NCBI RefSeq assembly: GCF_044324785.1
Contig: NZ_CP172127.1
From: Escherichia coli
Lineage (GTDB): Bacteria > Pseudomonadota > Gammaproteobacteria > Enterobacterales > Enterobacteriaceae
DNA: 64,000 nucleotides
Strand: one strand, 5' to 3'
Of this stretch, positions 3,321 to 10,877 are shown piece after piece (position 1 is the stretch's first letter; each line of letters opens with the position of its first letter). The notes beneath the pieces were generated by a model that saw nothing but the letters and a program-made list of their open reading frames with translations, made no database searches and was not told where the DNA came from. The position numbers and the translations under genes were made by a program.

Positions 3321-3379
3321 GCTATGATTAGCCGCTATTTTTTTGTCCTGAATGATGTTTGACACTACCGAGGTGTACT

Positions 3380-4777
3380 ATTTTTACCCGAGTCGCTAAT
3401 TTTTGCCGCAAGGTGCTAAGCCGCGAGGAAAGCGAGGCTGAACAGGCAGTCGCCCGTCCACAGGTGACGGTGATCCCGCGTGAGCAGCATGCTATTTCCC
3501 GCAAAGATATCAGTGAAAATGCCCTGAAGGTAATGTACAGGCTCAATAAAGCGGGATACGAAGCCTGGCTGGTTGGCGGCGGCGTGCGCGACCTGTTACT
3601 TGGCAAAAAGCCAAAAGATTTTGACGTAACCACTAACGCCACGCCTGAGCAGGTACGTAAACTGTTCCGTAACTGCCGCCTGGTGGGTCGCCGTTTCCGT
3701 CTGGCTCATGTGATGTTTGGCCCGGAGATTATCGAAGTTGCGACCTTCCGTGGACACCACGAAGGTAACATCAGCGACCGCACGACCTCCCAACGCGGGC
3801 AAAACGGCATGTTGCTGCGCGACAACATTTTCGGCTCCATCGAAGAAGACGCCCAGCGCCGCGATTTCACTATCAACAGCCTGTATTACAGCGTGGCAGA
3901 TTTTACCGTCCGTGATTACGTTGGCGGCATGAAGGATCTGAAAGACGGCGTTATCCGTCTGATTGGTAACCCGGAAACGCGCTACCGTGAAGATCCGGTA
4001 CGGATGCTGCGCGCGGTACGTTTTGCCGCCAAATTGGGTATGCGTATCAGTCCTGAAACCGCAGAACCGATCCCTCGCCTGGCTACCCTGCTGAACGATA
4101 TCCCACCGGCACGCCTGTTTGAAGAATCTTTGAAACTGCTGCAAGCGGGCTACGGTTACGAAACCTATAAGCTGCTGTGTGAATATCATCTGTTCCAGCC
4201 GCTGTTCCCGACCATTACCCGCTACTTCACGGAAAATGGCGACAGCCCGATGGAGCGGATCATTGAACAGGTGCTGAAGAATACCGATACGCGTATCCAT
4301 AACGATATGCGCGTGAACCCGGCATTCCTGTTTGCCGCCATGTTCTGGTACCCACTGCTGGAGACGGCACAGAAGATCGCCCAGGAAAGCGGCCTGACCT
4401 ATCACGACGCTTTCGCGCTGGCGATGAACGACGTGCTGGACGAAGCCTGCCGTTCACTGGCAATCCCGAAACGTCTGACGACGTTAACCCGCGATATCTG
4501 GCAGTTGCAGTTGCGTATGTCCCGTCGTCAGGGTAAACGCGCATGGAAACTGCTGGAGCATCCTAAGTTCCGTGCGGCTTATGACCTGTTGGCCTTGCGA
4601 GCTGAAGTTGAACGTAACGCTGAATTGCAGCGTCTGGTGAAATGGTGGGGTGAGTTTCAGGTTTCCGCGCCACCAGATCAAAAAGGGATGCTTAACGAGT
4701 TGGATGAAGAGCCGTCACCGCGTCGCCGTACTCGTCGTCCACGCAAACGCGCACCGCGTCGTGAGGGTACCGCATGA
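3380..4777 (+). CDS. pcnB: poly(A) polymerase I
   Basis: ...[21 protein letters not shown]... [18 protein letters not shown] nucleotidyltransferase motif; annotated start is ATT at 3380 (non-canonical); track ORF opens at TTG 3359. Confidence 0.85.
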
Positions 4778-5253
4778 CAGTGGCGTATATTGCCATAGGC
4801 AGCAATCTGGCCTCTCCGCTGGAGCAGGTCAATGCTGCCCTGAAAGCATTAGGCGATATCCCTGAAAGCCACATTCTTGCCGTTTCTTCGTTTTACCGCA
4901 CTCCACCGCTGGGGCCGCAAGATCAACCTGACTACCTCAACGCCGCCGTGGCGCTTGAAACCTCCCTCGCCCCGGAAGAGTTACTCAACCATACACAGCG
5001 CATAGAGCTGCAACAGGGTCGTGTTCGTAAAGCGGAACGCTGGGGACCGCGTACGCTGGATCTCGACATCATGCTGTTTGGTAATGAAGTGATAAATACC
5101 GAACGTCTGACCGTTCCGCACTACGATATGAAAAATCGTGGCTTTATGTTGTGGCCGCTGTTTGAGATTGCGCCGGGACTGGTGTTTCCTGATGGAACAG
5201 TATTAGGAAATTTATTAAAAATAAATAAATTTCATGAATTAAACAAATGGTGA
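4774..5253 (+). CDS. folK: 2-amino-4-hydroxy-6-hydroxymethyldihydropteridine pyrophosphokinase (HPPK)
   Basis: [35 protein letters not shown]... 159 aa; overlaps pcnB stop by 4 nt. Confidence 0.92.
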
Positions 5254-5600
5254 TTTAATGATTTCATGAATATAAATAAATTCCGAAAAATAACCTTACC
5301 CATTGCAATTAATATATTCCCTAAGCTACAACCATAATTAATATTATATACCCCGCTAACACCTTCTACCTCACATACAATATTTCTTCCGCTTTGTACA
5401 TTAAGCTTTACTTAAAGATGAATTAAGTGGATATATAAATTTAAATATGCACAATATCCCACTTGGTGATGAACAGATGTTACATTCAGTAAATCTTCAC
5501 ATTCATCATTAACAAACCAATCTATTTTTCTCTATCGGGGTTCTTTGTCTGAAAGTACCCGATCGTAGTTAAACTCATGGAATATGATTCAAGGATTATT

Positions 5601-6173
5601 ATGTCTAAAAAATTAGGTTTTGCCCTGTCTGGTCTAATGCTGGCAATGGTTGCAGGTACTGCTTCTGCTGATATGGACGGTGGTCAGATTAACATCAGTG
5701 GCTTGGTTAGCGATAACACCTGTGAAACAAAAGTTGATGGCGGCAAGCAAGATGGCCTGGTTCTTCTGCAAACTGCAACGGTTGCTGAAATTACCGCTGG
5801 TGTATCTGAAACTGCTGTCGGCGCCAAAGCGAAACCGTTTAGCATTACTGTAGACTGCAGCAAAGCGACTCCGGGAGGCCAACCGACTCTGACATTCGGT
5901 TCAGTCTTCTTTGGTAACAGTCGTGGCACTTTGAATAACGATATGTCCATCACCACCCCGTCATCTGGTGTGAATATCGCCCTGCACAACATTGACGGCA
6001 CCACGGTTAAACAAGTCAAAATTAATAATGCATCTGATGCTTACACTAAAGCATTAACCAATAATGTTGCAGTCTTTGACTTCAAAGCCTCCTATGTTCG
6101 TGAAGACAACTCAACACCAGCAACGGCTGGTTATGTAAGAACCAACACAGCTTACACCATCACCTACAATTAA
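5601..6173 (+). CDS. yadN: fimbrial major subunit, YadN-like
   Basis: [23 protein letters not shown] signal peptide, conserved Cys pair, C-terminal ...[13 protein letters not shown] typical of type 1-like pilins; first gene of the yad chaperone-usher operon. Confidence 0.75.
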
Positions 6174-6265
6174 GTTATTCGTTGGTGATTTAAATTACTA
6201 CAAGGGTGCGACACCTATTGTCGCCCCCTTGTCTTGAAAACAATTCATGTCATGGATGGTATATT

Positions 6266-6997
6266 TTGTTAAATAAAAAGAATATTGTCGCATTATGTGT
6301 TGTCAGTAGTATGGCATTTAGTATGCCTGTTATGGCCGATATTGTTATTTCCGGTACACGCGTCATTTATAAAAGTGATCAAAAAAGCGTTAGCGTACGC
6401 CTGGAGAATAAAGGCAATAGCCACCTGTTAGTACAAAGCTGGCTGGATACCGGTGACGATAACGCTGAGCCAGGAAGCATTAATGTACCATTTACGGCAA
6501 CACCTCCCGTTTCACGTATTGATGCTAAACGCGGTCAAACCATCAAATTGATGTATACCGGCAGTACCGTACTCCCCAGCGATAAAGAAAGCGTATTCTG
6601 GTTTAACGTGCTGGAAGTGCCCCCAAAACCAGATGCTACAAAAGTGGAGAATCAGAGCCTGTTACAACTGGCTTTCCGTACCCGTATCAAGCTGTTCTAT
6701 CGTCCGGCAGGATTAAACGGTAACCCGTCTGAAGCACCATTAGCCCTGAAATGGAAATGGGCTGAAGGGAAGTCTGGCCTGAGTGTATATAACCCAACAC
6801 CTTATTACGTCTCTTTCAACAGCGCAGAGTTAATCGCTGGCGGTAAGTCGAACCCGCTCAACGTAAAAATGATTGCACCGAAAAGCGAAGAGATTTTCAC
6901 CATAAGCGGTTCAGGCGGGAAAGCAACGTCAGGAAAGGTACATTTCTCAGCGATCAATGATTTTGGCGGCGCAATTGAAGGCGATGTCAATTTGTAA
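6266..6997 (+). CDS. yadV: periplasmic fimbrial chaperone (PapD-like), YadV/EcpD-like
   Basis: Mature part ADIVISGTRVIYKSDQKSVSVRLENKGNSHLLVQSWLD... is PapD-family; no in-frame ATG gives a signal peptide, so the start is TTG 6266 (SD-like ggatgg upstream) or GTG 6206. Confidence 0.7.
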   Translation: MLNKKNIVALCVVSSMAFSMPVMADIVISGTRVIYKSDQKSVSVRLENKGNSHLLVQSWLDTGDDNAEPGSINVPFTATPPVSRIDAKRGQTIKLMYTGSTVLPSDKESVFWFNVLEVPPKPDATKVENQSLLQLAFRTRIKLFYRPAGLNGNPSEAPLALKWKWAEGKSGLSVYNPTPYYVSFNSAELIAGGKSNPLNVKMIAPKSEEIFTISGSGGKATSGKVHFSAINDFGGAIEGDVNL

Positions 6998-7031
6998 GAC
7001 CAGGGACCTTATGCAGCAGGAAGCCAATGTA

Positions 7032-9632
7032 ATGAAAACAACGACATCGACTAAACGCCATAATCTTACGCGTATCGCAATGTATTGCTCAATTATGTAT
7101 AGCGGCGCTACCATCGGAGCCGAAAGCGTTGAGTATGACCCTACCTTTTTAATGGGTGGCAACGCTTCCAGTATTGATGTTAGCCGCTATAGCGATGGCA
7201 ACCCGACTTTGCCTGGTGTTTACGATGTTAGCATCTATGTTAACGAGCAACCTGTTGCTAACCTGGAGATCCCCTTTATCGCGATCCCCGAAAAAAAGAA
7301 TGCTCAAGCCTGTATTACCCTGAAAAATCTACTACAACTTCATATCAAGCCCCCCCCGGCAGACGAGGAAAATACTATCCTTCTTCCACGGGATGAAACG
7401 CTTGGCAACTGTCTTGACCTGTCGTTAGCCATACCTAAATCCTCAGTGAGCTATGACCCCTCTGAACAACGTCTGGATATCAATGTTCCCCAGGCGTGGG
7501 TGATGAAGAATTATCAAAACTATGTGGACCCATCACTTTGGGAAAATGGCATTAACGCGGCTACGCTGTCTTATAACATCAACGCTTATCGCAGTGAAAA
7601 TTCAAATTATACAAATGATAGCGTTTATACATCGTTCAATGGTGGCGTCAATTTAGGTGCCTGGCGTCTGCGTAGCAGCGGTAACTATAGCTGGAGAAAC
7701 GACGCGGGAAGCAATGTTGAGTTTATGAATCGCTACGTCCAGCGCGACATTACCGCTATTCGCTCGCAGCTCATTATGGGGGAATCCTACACCACAGGTG
7801 AAACGTTCGATTCCGTTAGTATCCGCGGCATTCGCTTATACAGCGATAGCCGAATGCTGCCGCCAGTATTGGCAAACTTCGCCCCAACAATTCGTGGTGT
7901 AGCGAATACCAACGCCAAAGTCAGCATTACCCAGGGTGGATACAAAATTTATGAAACCACTGTTCCACCGGGACCTTTTGTCATTGATGATCTCAGTCCG
8001 TCAGGGTATGGCAGCGATCTTATCGTAACCATTGAAGAAGCTGATGGCAGCAAGCGTACATTTTCTCAGCCATTTTCTTCAGTAATTCAAATGCTGCGCC
8101 CGGGTGTTTCTCGCTGGGATATCAGCGGCGGGCAAATTAATAAAGACGACTTGCATCATGAACCAAACTTACTACAAGCGACCTATTACCGTGGTTTAAG
8201 TAACCTGTTCACTGGCTATACTGGTTTTCAGGTCACAGATAATCATTATGCTGCAGGCTTACTTGGCATTGGGATGAATACTTCTGTCGGCGCAATTTCC
8301 TTCGATGTCACCCACTCCAGTGTCGATATACCGGATGATAAAAGGTACCAGGGGCAAAGCTATCGCATCTCCTGGAACAAATTTTTTGACCTGACAGATA
8401 CATCATTAAACATCGCGGCTTACCGCTACTCCACGCAGGACTATCTGGGCCTGAATGATGCATTAACACTTATTGATGAAGTTGAACATCCCACTCAGGA
8501 TCTTGATCCCAAAACTATGCGCAACTACGGGCGCATGAAAAACCAGTTCACCGTAAGCATTAACCAACCGCTACGCTTTGGGAAGGATGATTATGGCTCG
8601 TTCTATACCTCTGGAAGCTGGTCTGATTACTGGGGGGGCGGTAAGAGCCGTAGCAACTATTCGGTCGGCTACAGTAACAGCGCTTCATGGGGAAGCTACA
8701 GTATCAGCGCTCAACGATCCTGGGATGAGTACAGCCAAACAGAAAACAGTATTTACCTCAGCTTTTCGATACCTATCGAAAAACTGATGGGTACGGAGCA
8801 CCGTGATTCCGGTTTCCAAAGTATTGATACACAACTTAGTACCAATATGGATGGTAATAATCAGTTCAACATGAGCAGTAGCGGTTATAGCAACGATAAT
8901 CGCGTGAGCTATAGCGTGAACGCGGGTTATGGGATGAATAAAACCGGCAAAGATCTCAGCAACATCGGGGGTTATGCCAGCTATGAATCGCCATGGGGAA
9001 CGCTAGCTGGGTCAGTCTCTGCTACCAGCGATAATAACCGCCAGTACTCCGTTAATACAGATGGTGGATTTGTGTTGCACAGCGGAGGACTTACGTTCAG
9101 CAACGACAGTTTCAGTGATAATGACACCATTGCTCTGGTTAAAGCACCGGGTGCAAAAGGGGCGCGTATTAACTACGGCAACAATACCGTTGACCGTTGG
9201 GGATATGGCGTAACCAGTGCTCTTTCACCATACCAGGAAAACAAAATTGCTCTGGACACTGAAAACCTGGAAAACGACATCGAAATGAAGAGCACCAGTA
9301 CAGTTGCCGTACCACGCCAGGGCTCGGTTATCTTTGCTGGTTTTGAAACCAATCAGGGACAATCTGCGATTATGAATATCAAACGCAGTGACGGAAAAGG
9401 TATCCCCTTCGCCGCCGATATTCATGATGAAACAAATGCAATCATTGGCAACGTTGGGCAGGGCGGGCAGGCATTTGTTCGCGGTATTCAGCAGCAGGGC
9501 ACGATAAAAATCACCTGGCTGGAAGCCAGCATGCCCAAAACCTGTATTGCGCAGTACCAGCAACCCAATGTGACATCGGAGAAAATCCAGCAAACGATTA
9601 TTCTCAATAATATTCTTTGCCAGCTCCAATAA
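7032..9632 (+). CDS. htrE: outer-membrane fimbrial usher, HtrE-like
   Basis: MKTTTSTKRHNLTRIAMYCS... about 866 aa with usher motifs (ITQGGYKIYETTVPPGPFVIDDLSPSGYGSDL); start ATG at 7032 preferred over the track start 6957. Confidence 0.85.
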   Translation: MKTTTSTKRHNLTRIAMYCSIMYSGATIGAESVEYDPTFLMGGNASSIDVSRYSDGNPTLPGVYDVSIYVNEQPVANLEIPFIAIPEKKNAQACITLKNLLQLHIKPPPADEENTILLPRDETLGNCLDLSLAIPKSSVSYDPSEQRLDINVPQAWVMKNYQNYVDPSLWENGINAATLSYNINAYRSENSNYTNDSVYTSFNGGVNLGAWRLRSSGNYSWRNDAGSNVEFMNRYVQRDITAIRSQLIMGESYTTGETFDSVSIRGIRLYSDSRMLPPVLANFAPTIRGVANTNAKVSITQGGYKIYETTVPPGPFVIDDLSPSGYGSDLIVTIEEADGSKRTFSQPFSSVIQMLRPGVSRWDISGGQINKDDLHHEPNLLQATYYRGLSNLFTGYTGFQVTDNHYAAGLLGIGMNTSVGAISFDVTHSSVDIPDDKRYQGQSYRISWNKFFDLTDTSLNIAAYRYSTQDYLGLNDALTLIDEVEHPTQDLDPKTMRNYGRMKNQFTVSINQPLRFGKDDYGSFYTSGSWSDYWGGGKSRSNYSVGYSNSASWGSYSISAQRSWDEYSQTENSIYLSFSIPIEKLMGTEHRDSGFQSIDTQLSTNMDGNNQFNMSSSGYSNDNRVSYSVNAGYGMNKTGKDLSNIGGYASYESPWGTLAGSVSATSDNNRQYSVNTDGGFVLHSGGLTFSNDSFSDNDTIALVKAPGAKGARINYGNNTVDRWGYGVTSALSPYQENKIALDTENLENDIEMKSTSTVAVPRQGSVIFAGFETNQGQSAIMNIKRSDGKGIPFAADIHDETNAIIGNVGQGGQAFVRGIQQQGTIKITWLEASMPKTCIAQYQQPNVTSEKIQQTIILNNILCQLQ

Positions 9633-9644
9633 TACGAAAGAGAG

Positions 9645-10211
9645 ATGACAATGATAAAAAACTCACGGTATAAAATAGTACTCCTGACAGGCATTTTTTT
9701 ACTGCCCGGCGCACTGGCACAAGATATTAATGTTGATTTTGTTGCCACAATCAAAGGCACGACATGTAATATCACTCTGGAAGGGACACGCGTCACCGCT
9801 GATGGAAATAATCAGTACACGCTACGGATATTAAATGTTGCTCTGGATAAAATCATAAACAAGATGCCAGAAGCACAAGCCGACTTTAAACTGGTCGCTA
9901 ATTGTGATGGTAACATAGGCAAGATTACGACATCGCTGGCAGGGAATCCTTCAGGAGAGTTACCCTATTTAATTTCTCCATTAACTTCAGATAATTCATC
10001 CACCACAGAATATATTGCTATGGGGATTAAACTTCGAAATACCTCTGACACTGAATTTATTCCCCCAGATGGTTCTAAAAAGATTTCCTGGGGAGAGGGA
10101 TTAACAAAACCGGAACTTGAGATGACGGTAGCACTTCGCGAAACCCGACCAGGTTCAGGAAGAGCAGGTAGTTTTAAAGCACTTGCGACATTCAATTTCA
10201 CCTATGAATAA
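9645..10211 (+). CDS. yadM: fimbrial minor subunit, YadM-like
   Basis: 188 aa, signal peptide MTMIKNSRYKIVLLTGIFLLPGALA, pilin-like C-terminus ...ALATFNFTYE. Confidence 0.7.
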   Translation: MTMIKNSRYKIVLLTGIFLLPGALAQDINVDFVATIKGTTCNITLEGTRVTADGNNQYTLRILNVALDKIINKMPEAQADFKLVANCDGNIGKITTSLAGNPSGELPYLISPLTSDNSSTTEYIAMGIKLRNTSDTEFIPPDGSKKISWGEGLTKPELEMTVALRETRPGSGRAGSFKALATFNFTYE

Positions 10212-10224
10212 AAGGATAATAATA

Positions 10225-10824
10225 ATGCAGATGAAATCATTACATTATGGGATATTTGCAAGCATTACTCTGAGCTTATTATTATTCAGCACGTTTTCTA
10301 TAGCCATCACTGATAACATTGGCCTAAACGTTATGACCATTGTTGAAAACAGAACTTGTCAAAGCGAAATCAACAACCAGGGGTTGGTTAATCTTGGCAC
10401 TGTTGGAGTGGGATATTTTGCCAGTAATGTTAGTGCGGAAGATAATTATCCAGGCGGAAAAACCTTTACTGTGACAGTAAAAGATTGCCCCTCCGCTGGC
10501 ACAACATCAAGTCAGTTGCATATAGAATTTAAACCTGTCAGTGGTGTAATGGCCACTGGTAGCCAACAGATATTCGCCAATAATCATGTCGGCGGCGCAC
10601 AAAATGTAGGAATCGTTATTTTTAGCCAAAATAATCAGTCATCGGATACAGTGAATGTGCTGTCACCAACAGGGCAGTTTCGCACGGTCTGGCCTGTTGT
10701 CTCTGCGAATATGAATAATTCATCGTGGCAATTTTATACACGAATGCAGAAAATAGATCCGTTACTCCCGGTTGGTGCAGGATTTGTTACCAGTAACGTA
10801 TTAGTTGATATTTATTATCAATAA
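10225..10824 (+). CDS. fimbrial minor subunit (YadL/YadK-like)
   Basis: ATG at 10225 behind SD aaaagga; MQMKSLHYGIFASITLSLLLFSTFSIA signal peptide; pilin fold cysteines; ends ...VLVDIYYQ. Confidence 0.65.
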   Translation: MQMKSLHYGIFASITLSLLLFSTFSIAITDNIGLNVMTIVENRTCQSEINNQGLVNLGTVGVGYFASNVSAEDNYPGGKTFTVTVKDCPSAGTTSSQLHIEFKPVSGVMATGSQQIFANNHVGGAQNVGIVIFSQNNQSSDTVNVLSPTGQFRTVWPVVSANMNNSSWQFYTRMQKIDPLLPVGAGFVTSNVLVDIYYQ

Positions 10825-10877
10825 TTATGCTAAGCATAATGCTTCTACAAATATTATTTTTTCAAAGGAGTGATAAG

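Follow-up and report, generated by a model that had tools for sequence, protein, structure and literature searches.

Most likely a one-codon start shift: TTG in place of ATG at the chaperone gene of a variant Escherichia coli yad fimbrial operon

The yad locus of the window and its chaperone gene

The window, that is the whole stretch of 64,000 nucleotides of E. coli DNA that was analysed, carries a chaperone-usher fimbrial operon at the yad locus (5577-12128), flanked by folK (4774-5253) and panB (from 12242). According to the open reading frames (ORFs) and to the RefSeq annotation of a sister strain and of K-12, the gene order is major subunit, chaperone, usher and three more subunit genes, and all the ORFs of the operon are intact. 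The Yad operon is defined by its locus (PMC3559732), and both the position between folK and panB and the order of major subunit, chaperone, usher and further subunits/adhesin are found in the window. The full yadN-yadV-htrE-yadMLKC set is not present: three subunit genes follow the usher (9645-12128), versus four in K-12 and in K-12-type loci such as that of strain N3, and the window operon is therefore a variant allele of the yad locus. The major-subunit gene, the longest ORF of which opens at ATG 5577, lies directly 5' of the chaperone gene, between the latter and folK, as in K-12. Pfam usher domains were found in the sister locus. The start of the usher is ambiguous as well, with in-frame ATGs at 6957, 7011 and 7032 (window 6957-7034); RefSeq picks 7032, and usher versions of 866 aa and 873 aa are both present in the databases.

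The G+C content of the yad locus is 36-48%, versus 52-56% in the flanks. The interval between folK and the major-subunit gene (window 5000-5599) is the minimum of the neighbourhood, with 36% G+C, which fits the H-NS-bound yadN promoter region known from other alleles. Comparison of window 5254-12241 with the N3 locus (L011, 11861-19496) and with other strains revealed that the flanking housekeeping genes are 99.8-99.9% identical to those of N3 and ∼97.8-98.8% identical to those of other E. coli. Despite these near-identical flanks, the yad allele of N3 is not that of the window: it resembles the K-12 one, its chaperone starts with ATG and four subunit genes come after the usher. The whole yad locus appears to have been swapped between lineages by recombination. 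On the panB-panC side of the window, the best E. coli match is only 96.5% identical.

The chaperone frame is open from 6194, after an in-frame TAA stop (6191-6193), and ends at the stop codon 6995-6997 (Table 1). Both domains of the two-domain PapD architecture are present and intact: PapD_N (PF00345) covers residues 26-150 (E = 4.1e-43) and PapD_C (PF02753) residues 174-237 (E = 3.6e-19). Among solved structures, the protein matched YadV, CupB2, SfaE, FimC and PapD. The alignment with K-12 YadV (EcpD; PDB 5GHU, E = 5e-114; 77% protein identity) begins at D25, and the first residues of the solved 5GHU chain set the mature N-terminus, DIVISGTR, at window 6338. The two proteins share the folK-panB locus, the gene order and the mature N-terminus DIVISGTRVIY. 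The subunit-anchoring cleft residues are conserved: the Arg at position 8 of mature DIVISGTR and the Lys kept in the motif RTRIKLFYRP both align identically to YadV 5GHU. These correspond to Arg8 and Lys112 (PapD numbering), which we take to be the cleft pair anchoring the subunit C-terminus.

Table 1. Features of the chaperone region and candidate initiation codons. Model totals come from a rough initiation model in the style of the RBS Calculator, written for this analysis, and are approximate.
Feature	Position	Strand	Model total (kcal/mol)	Basis or remark
Major fimbrial subunit gene, yadN-like	5601..6173	+		ORF list; sister-strain RefSeq CDS maps to 5601-6173
Intercistronic hairpin ACAAGGGTGCGACA-CCTAT-TGTCGCCCCCTTGT	6200..6232	+		Contains GTG 6206 and TTG 6218
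GTG, first start-type codon of the ORF, rejected as start	6206..6208	+	+28.6	In hairpin stem, no Shine-Dalgarno sequence
TTG	6218		+15.4	
Shine-Dalgarno-like GGATGGT	6254..6260	+		Pairs with the 16S 3' end ACCUCC, one bulged U
ATT, ancestral ATG start position	6263..6265	+		Gap-free alignment in register with the ATG of six other alleles
TTG, proposed initiation codon	6266..6268	+	+2.3	Shine-Dalgarno spacing, model, leader length, invariance
Predicted signal-peptide coding segment, MLNKKNIVALCVVSSMAFSMPVMA, cleaved after VMA	6266..6337	+		Charge, core, -3/-1 residues
Internal ATG, Met16 of precursor	6311..6313	+	+9.2	Start of the 228-aa RefSeq product
Mature PapD-like chaperone, 219 aa and stop codon	6338..6997	+		Pfam domains, PDB 5GHU match
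Usher gene, htrE-like, intact, next in operon after chaperone	7032..9632	+		ORF list; sister-strain RefSeq start maps to 7032
ATG start of K-12			+4.2	
ATG starts of six other E. coli alleles and two other-genus orthologues			-1.6 to +5.9	

A hairpin lies between the major-subunit gene and the chaperone start. Its arms of 14 nt are 93% complementary, and it was found in both the MFE and the centroid folds (z = -3.6). When nine yad-type loci were folded, those of the window and of Citrobacter included, all had a hairpin of differing sequence at the same place (z from -2.1 to -6.3). This position after the major-subunit gene corresponds to L002 3646-3683, L005 840-900, L006 849-880, L008 767-801 and L011 12827-12868, and to sites upstream of 1501 in L016 and L018. 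The K-12 hairpin differs in sequence from that of the window, and in the K-12-type alleles a U-rich tract comes after it. In the window the terminator scan did not call an intrinsic terminator at the hairpin, because no T-run follows the stem. This recalls the pap operon, in which a stable hairpin, the partial terminator of the papA-papH interval, also stands directly after the major-subunit gene and ahead of the assembly genes (PMC6524683); the yad hairpin differs from it by the missing T-run in the window allele, while its own position is conserved across the yad loci. By analogy with papA-papH, the yad hairpin may serve to attenuate transcription or to stabilise the mRNA.

The chaperone start region in other yad alleles

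In the chaperone frame, the start-type codons are successively GTG 6206, TTG 6218, ATT 6263, TTG 6266 and ATG 6311, then ATG 6323 and 6332. An earlier reading of the sequence alone had claimed that the gene has no usable ATG start, and this is confirmed: the first in-frame ATG, at 6311, leaves a leader of nine residues, MAFSMPVMA. It had also presented 6311 as the only in-frame ATG; it is the first one, and those at 6323 and 6332 follow, still inside the leader. As for the start itself, the same reading had proposed either TTG 6266, preceded by ggatgg, or GTG 6206. GGATGG is indeed located at 6254-6259 and TTG 6266 emerged as the best candidate, whereas GTG 6206 was rejected, and ATT 6263 and TTG 6218 had been overlooked.

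The 5' region of the window allele was aligned with that of five other E. coli yad alleles and of strain N3. The ATG alleles aligned without any indel with a window sequence that reads ATT-TTG. In the six others (K-12, ExPEC XM, ET450, NQ3, 702/18 and N3) the sequence is GG(G/A)ATGGTTT-ATG-TTT-TT, versus GGATGGTAT-ATT-TTG-TT at the same place in the window. No indel separates the alleles between the Shine-Dalgarno (SD)-like motif and the mature N-terminus, and the intergenic sequence farther upstream is indel-rich. This gap-free alignment indicates two substitutions, G to T in the ancestral ATG (now ATT) and T to G in the TTT that follows it (now TTG).

The window allele is carried by 460 of the 5,426 complete E. 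coli genomes, and positions 6250-6283 are 100% identical in all 460, as well as in four metagenome contigs; in the assembly index, 274 blocks contain the exact window chaperone protein. According to the sequence-only reading, an alignable ATG-initiated orthologue would have pointed to a sequencing error or a frameshift. Such orthologues do exist, but what they reveal is a real ATG-to-ATT substitution: error and frameshift are ruled out by the identity in the 460 genomes and four metagenome contigs, together with the gap-free alignment to the ATG alleles. The intermediates ATG-TTG and ATT-TTT were looked for with the pattern GGATGGTATATNTTNTTAAATAAAAAG. None was found in the GTDB species representatives, and the four matches in metagenomes were all ATT-TTG. 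A literature search on yadV and yadN returned nothing relevant to the start codon, which is not mentioned in the 2026 Yad paper (PMC13245861) either. The start region is most likely a conserved and ordinary one-codon start shift and not a sign of gene decay.

Citrobacter portucalensis and another taxon have syntenic orthologues 3' of folK that begin with ATG-CTG-AAC or ATG-TTG-AAT (MLN...). Their ATG aligns with TTG 6266, from which the window leader begins MLNKKN, comparable to the MLN.K. of ATG-initiated orthologues. Since these orthologues have an ATG at the TTG-aligned codon, both positions are natural start positions in the chaperone family.

Ribosome binding, leader length and the choice of the start codon

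The SD-like motif has a duplex energy of -6.8 kcal/mol, and its ATGGT part is invariant in 9/9 aligned E. coli sequences (6 alleles), K-12 included. Its aligned spacing is 5-6 nt to TTG 6266, versus 2-3 nt to ATT 6263. The approximate initiation model places TTG 6266 among the ATG alleles in strength, ahead of K-12's own start. The ranking of the candidates was the same under an alternative spacing definition, and apart from codon identity the gap between ATT and TTG was small; with the spacing as defined in the published RBS Calculator, TTG gains only ∼1.2 kcal/mol over ATT from its better spacing. The discrimination between TTG and ATT therefore rests mainly on codon identity. In this respect, the UUG class initiates at 10-100% of AUG and the AUU class at 1-2%, efficiencies obtained with reporter constructs and not in the yad chaperone context (bioRxiv 10.1101/063800). 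GTG or TTG is the start codon of about 17% of the known E. coli genes (bioRxiv 10.1101/063800), and a non-ATG start is hence statistically not unusual.

The leaders were scored heuristically. The 24-residue leader from TTG 6266 has an n-region charge of +2 (two lysines), an uncharged core of 14 residues and V/A at -3/-1 (V-M-A), and a cleavable Sec signal peptide was recognised by this scoring from TTG 6266 or ATT 6263. None was recognised from ATG 6311, the 9-residue leader of which has no n-region and a core of five residues. The window signal peptide aligns codon for codon with its homologue in K-12 YadV, which starts at ATG where the window has ATT then TTG, so that the window leader is one residue shorter. 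The 98 full-length homologues have leaders of 21-27 aa ahead of the conserved ADI(V/I)xSGTR, with 25 residues in 56/98 and 24 in 17/98; TTG 6266 gives 24, ATT 6263 gives 25 and ATG 6311 gives 9. ATG 6311 was rejected as a start: it has no SD, its leader has no n-region and no exported chaperone is possible from it. Other alleles have Val or Leu at 6311, and the Met of the window fits an ordinary residue of the putative signal-peptide hydrophobic core.

Taken together, we infer that the ribosome probably uses TTG 6266, in an intact and selectively maintained periplasmic PapD-like chaperone gene of a variant yad operon, and we hold this explanation as a whole with good confidence. Translation would begin at TTG 6266, placed by the SD-like GGAUGGU at 6254-6260, and the precursor would bear a 24-residue Sec signal peptide cut before the Asp at 6338. 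Whether ATT 6263 or TTG 6266 is used makes no difference to the mature chaperone, since both belong to the leader that is cleaved off.

The closest competitor of TTG 6266 is the preceding codon. ATT 6263 would then still be the main start of a natural AUU-initiated gene, like infC or pcnB, with a very low and IF3-sensitive chaperone translation. This codon is the exact homologue of the ATG of the six other alleles, it gives the modal 25-aa leader and it is annotated by PGAP in strains 7/2 and ST2747; in the records checked, PGAP picked ATT and not TTG. Furthermore, AUU starts exist in E. coli, and pcnB, 2.9 kb upstream in the same window, has like infC an ATT in start position behind an SD. 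Both ATT 6263 and TTG 6266 are invariant, and the comparative data cannot separate them. However, the efficiency of AUU is far below that of the UUG class, and a canonical TTG with a better SD spacing stands in the very next codon. The only confirmed AUU starts in E. coli are those of infC and pcnB (bioRxiv 10.1101/063800), and neither gene has an adjacent canonical start, AUU use being experimentally confirmed in both, whereas in the window chaperone TTG comes directly after ATT. The gene accordingly differs from the naturally AUU-initiated ones, in which AUU is used without a canonical alternative, and we consider ATT 6263 an unlikely main start. In pcnB, the AUU (ATT 3380) is served by an optimally spaced GAGGUG, seen as GAGGTG in window 3370-3382; the mechanical ORF list gives TTG 3359 as the pcnB start.

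It is slightly less likely again that AUU 6263 and UUG 6266 are both used, or that AUU is the principal start, which would make the chaperone the third natural AUU-initiated gene of E. coli. If AUU were used, the chaperone-to-subunit ratio of the fimbrial operon would depend on IF3 levels, and the pair of changes from ATG to ATT and from TTT to TTG would be an adaptive retuning of the chaperone dosage and not a neutral turnover.

Initiation from the preferred TTG 6266 was also weighed against a start farther upstream, at GTG 6206 or TTG 6218, with a 40-44-residue leader bearing an N-terminal extension. The open frame starts before both codons, and a 259-aa product from TTG 6218, made by some gene callers, is abundant in the databases. 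Both codons, however, are buried in the hairpin 6200-6232, at an unfolding cost of ∼18-19 kcal/mol, and neither has a usable SD. GTG 6206, which lies in the 5' arm and has the least favourable total of the approximate model, is moreover replaced by GAG in the sister strains CFSAN061763 and Z0117EC0056 (same allele) and in metagenome contig L012; this T/A polymorphism, at 6207, sits on an unpaired bulge of the hairpin stem. The upstream segment is unalignable and indel-rich between alleles, as expected of non-coding sequence, and the longest leader of the homologues is 27 aa. Such an extended leader is hardly credible.

Out-of-frame ATGs at 6247, 6252 and 6256 begin mini-ORFs, 6-9 codons long, which overlap the SD as well as the start (window 6247-6276). 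All alleles share the ATG within GGATGG, and a corresponding mini-ORF of 5 codons is found in K-12. As leader mini-ORFs these ATGs were set aside, since they have no SD and show no sign of a role.

Selection, crypticity and annotation of the chaperone gene

The sequence-only reading had put forward that a weak start on the chaperone may contribute to the cryptic nature of the operon or reflect 5' decay. On such a view, the chaperone would be too scarce, or deprived of its signal peptide by initiation at ATG 6311, and the operon would be effectively dead in the lineage. In its favour, the gene has no ATG-initiated exportable product, most sampled RefSeq records model it from ATG 6311, and damaged yad chaperones do occur: that of 13E0767 is interrupted by IS1, and those of P0002/P0003 have lost 36 aa through an in-frame deletion. 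The data on the window allele itself do not support decay. Its start region is invariant in the 460 genomes and in the divergent lineage of the window, the gene and the operon ORFs are intact, and the differences between copies are biased towards synonymous ones: the window and CFSAN061763 chaperones differ by seven synonymous and two nonsynonymous changes, and copies of the allele have a pN/pS of 0.08-0.19 (binomial P between 4e-4 and 2e-3), in a test that uses only 8-15 differences for each pair and assumes that the allele arose once. Since the compared copies all carry ATT-TTG, this low pN/pS indicates, under that assumption, that purifying selection continued after the loss of ATG. The relaxed selection, disrupted frame and variable 5' end of a pseudogene or decaying gene are thus not found.

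The crypticity does not follow from the start either. The K-12 allele, with its ATG, is the classic cryptic yad operon, and the modelled strength of TTG 6266 lies inside the range of the ATG alleles and above that of K-12. In K-12, CFT073 and EC958, H-NS silences the transcription of yad at the yadN promoter (PMC13245861; PMC3559732), and by analogy the window operon is presumably H-NS-silenced as the other alleles are. The TTG start does not explain why yad fimbriae are cryptic, and we regard a functional decay through a weak start as very unlikely. From the sequence comparisons, the window chaperone is most likely an ordinary TTG-initiated gene that arose by a one-codon start shift, real, conserved and functional-looking. 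It offers a clean natural case of start-codon turnover, in which the ATG was lost, a canonical start was gained next door with a better SD spacing, and the mature protein was left unchanged.

Several alterations of the yad chaperone were seen in other strains. In E. coli 13E0767 (L009 31-1548), an IS1A insertion splits the gene, which is a real inactivation at this locus. P0002 and P0003 (207-208 aa; 13 contigs for P0002 and 5 for P0003, the longest of 5.09 Mb) have an in-frame deletion of 36 residues, from DTG to STVLP; it removes the core of the N-terminal domain, and the chaperone is probably non-functional in these strains. P0001 (ENA contig, 245 aa) is a mosaic, its N-terminal two thirds corresponding to the window allele, MLNKKN start included, and its C-terminal third being of the K-12 type, which suggests recombination within the chaperone gene.

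The main value of these results is the correction of the annotated start of the yad chaperone. One invariant DNA sequence has received four N-termini in the databases, giving products of 259 (TTG 6218), 244 (ATT 6263), 243 (TTG 6266) and 228 aa (ATG 6311), and the 243-aa and 259-aa versions each occur on many contigs in public collections. The RefSeq CDS starts at ATG 6311 (228 aa) in CFSAN061763 and Z0117EC0056, and at ATT 6263 (244 aa) in strains 7/2 and ST2747. When 60 RefSeq genomes were sampled at even intervals, a feature over 6236-6300 was absent in 41/60 and present in 19/60; about two thirds of the sampled records start at ATG 6311 and about one third at ATT 6263 (PGAP). Consequently, about two thirds of the sampled RefSeq genomes model a chaperone without signal peptide, which localisation predictors and pan-genome clustering would mishandle. 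The 90%-identity cluster that holds the chaperone (2,345 members) has an 873-aa usher sequence as its representative and also contains usher proteins, which explains why the full-length cluster of the window allele was missing from the results of the homology search.
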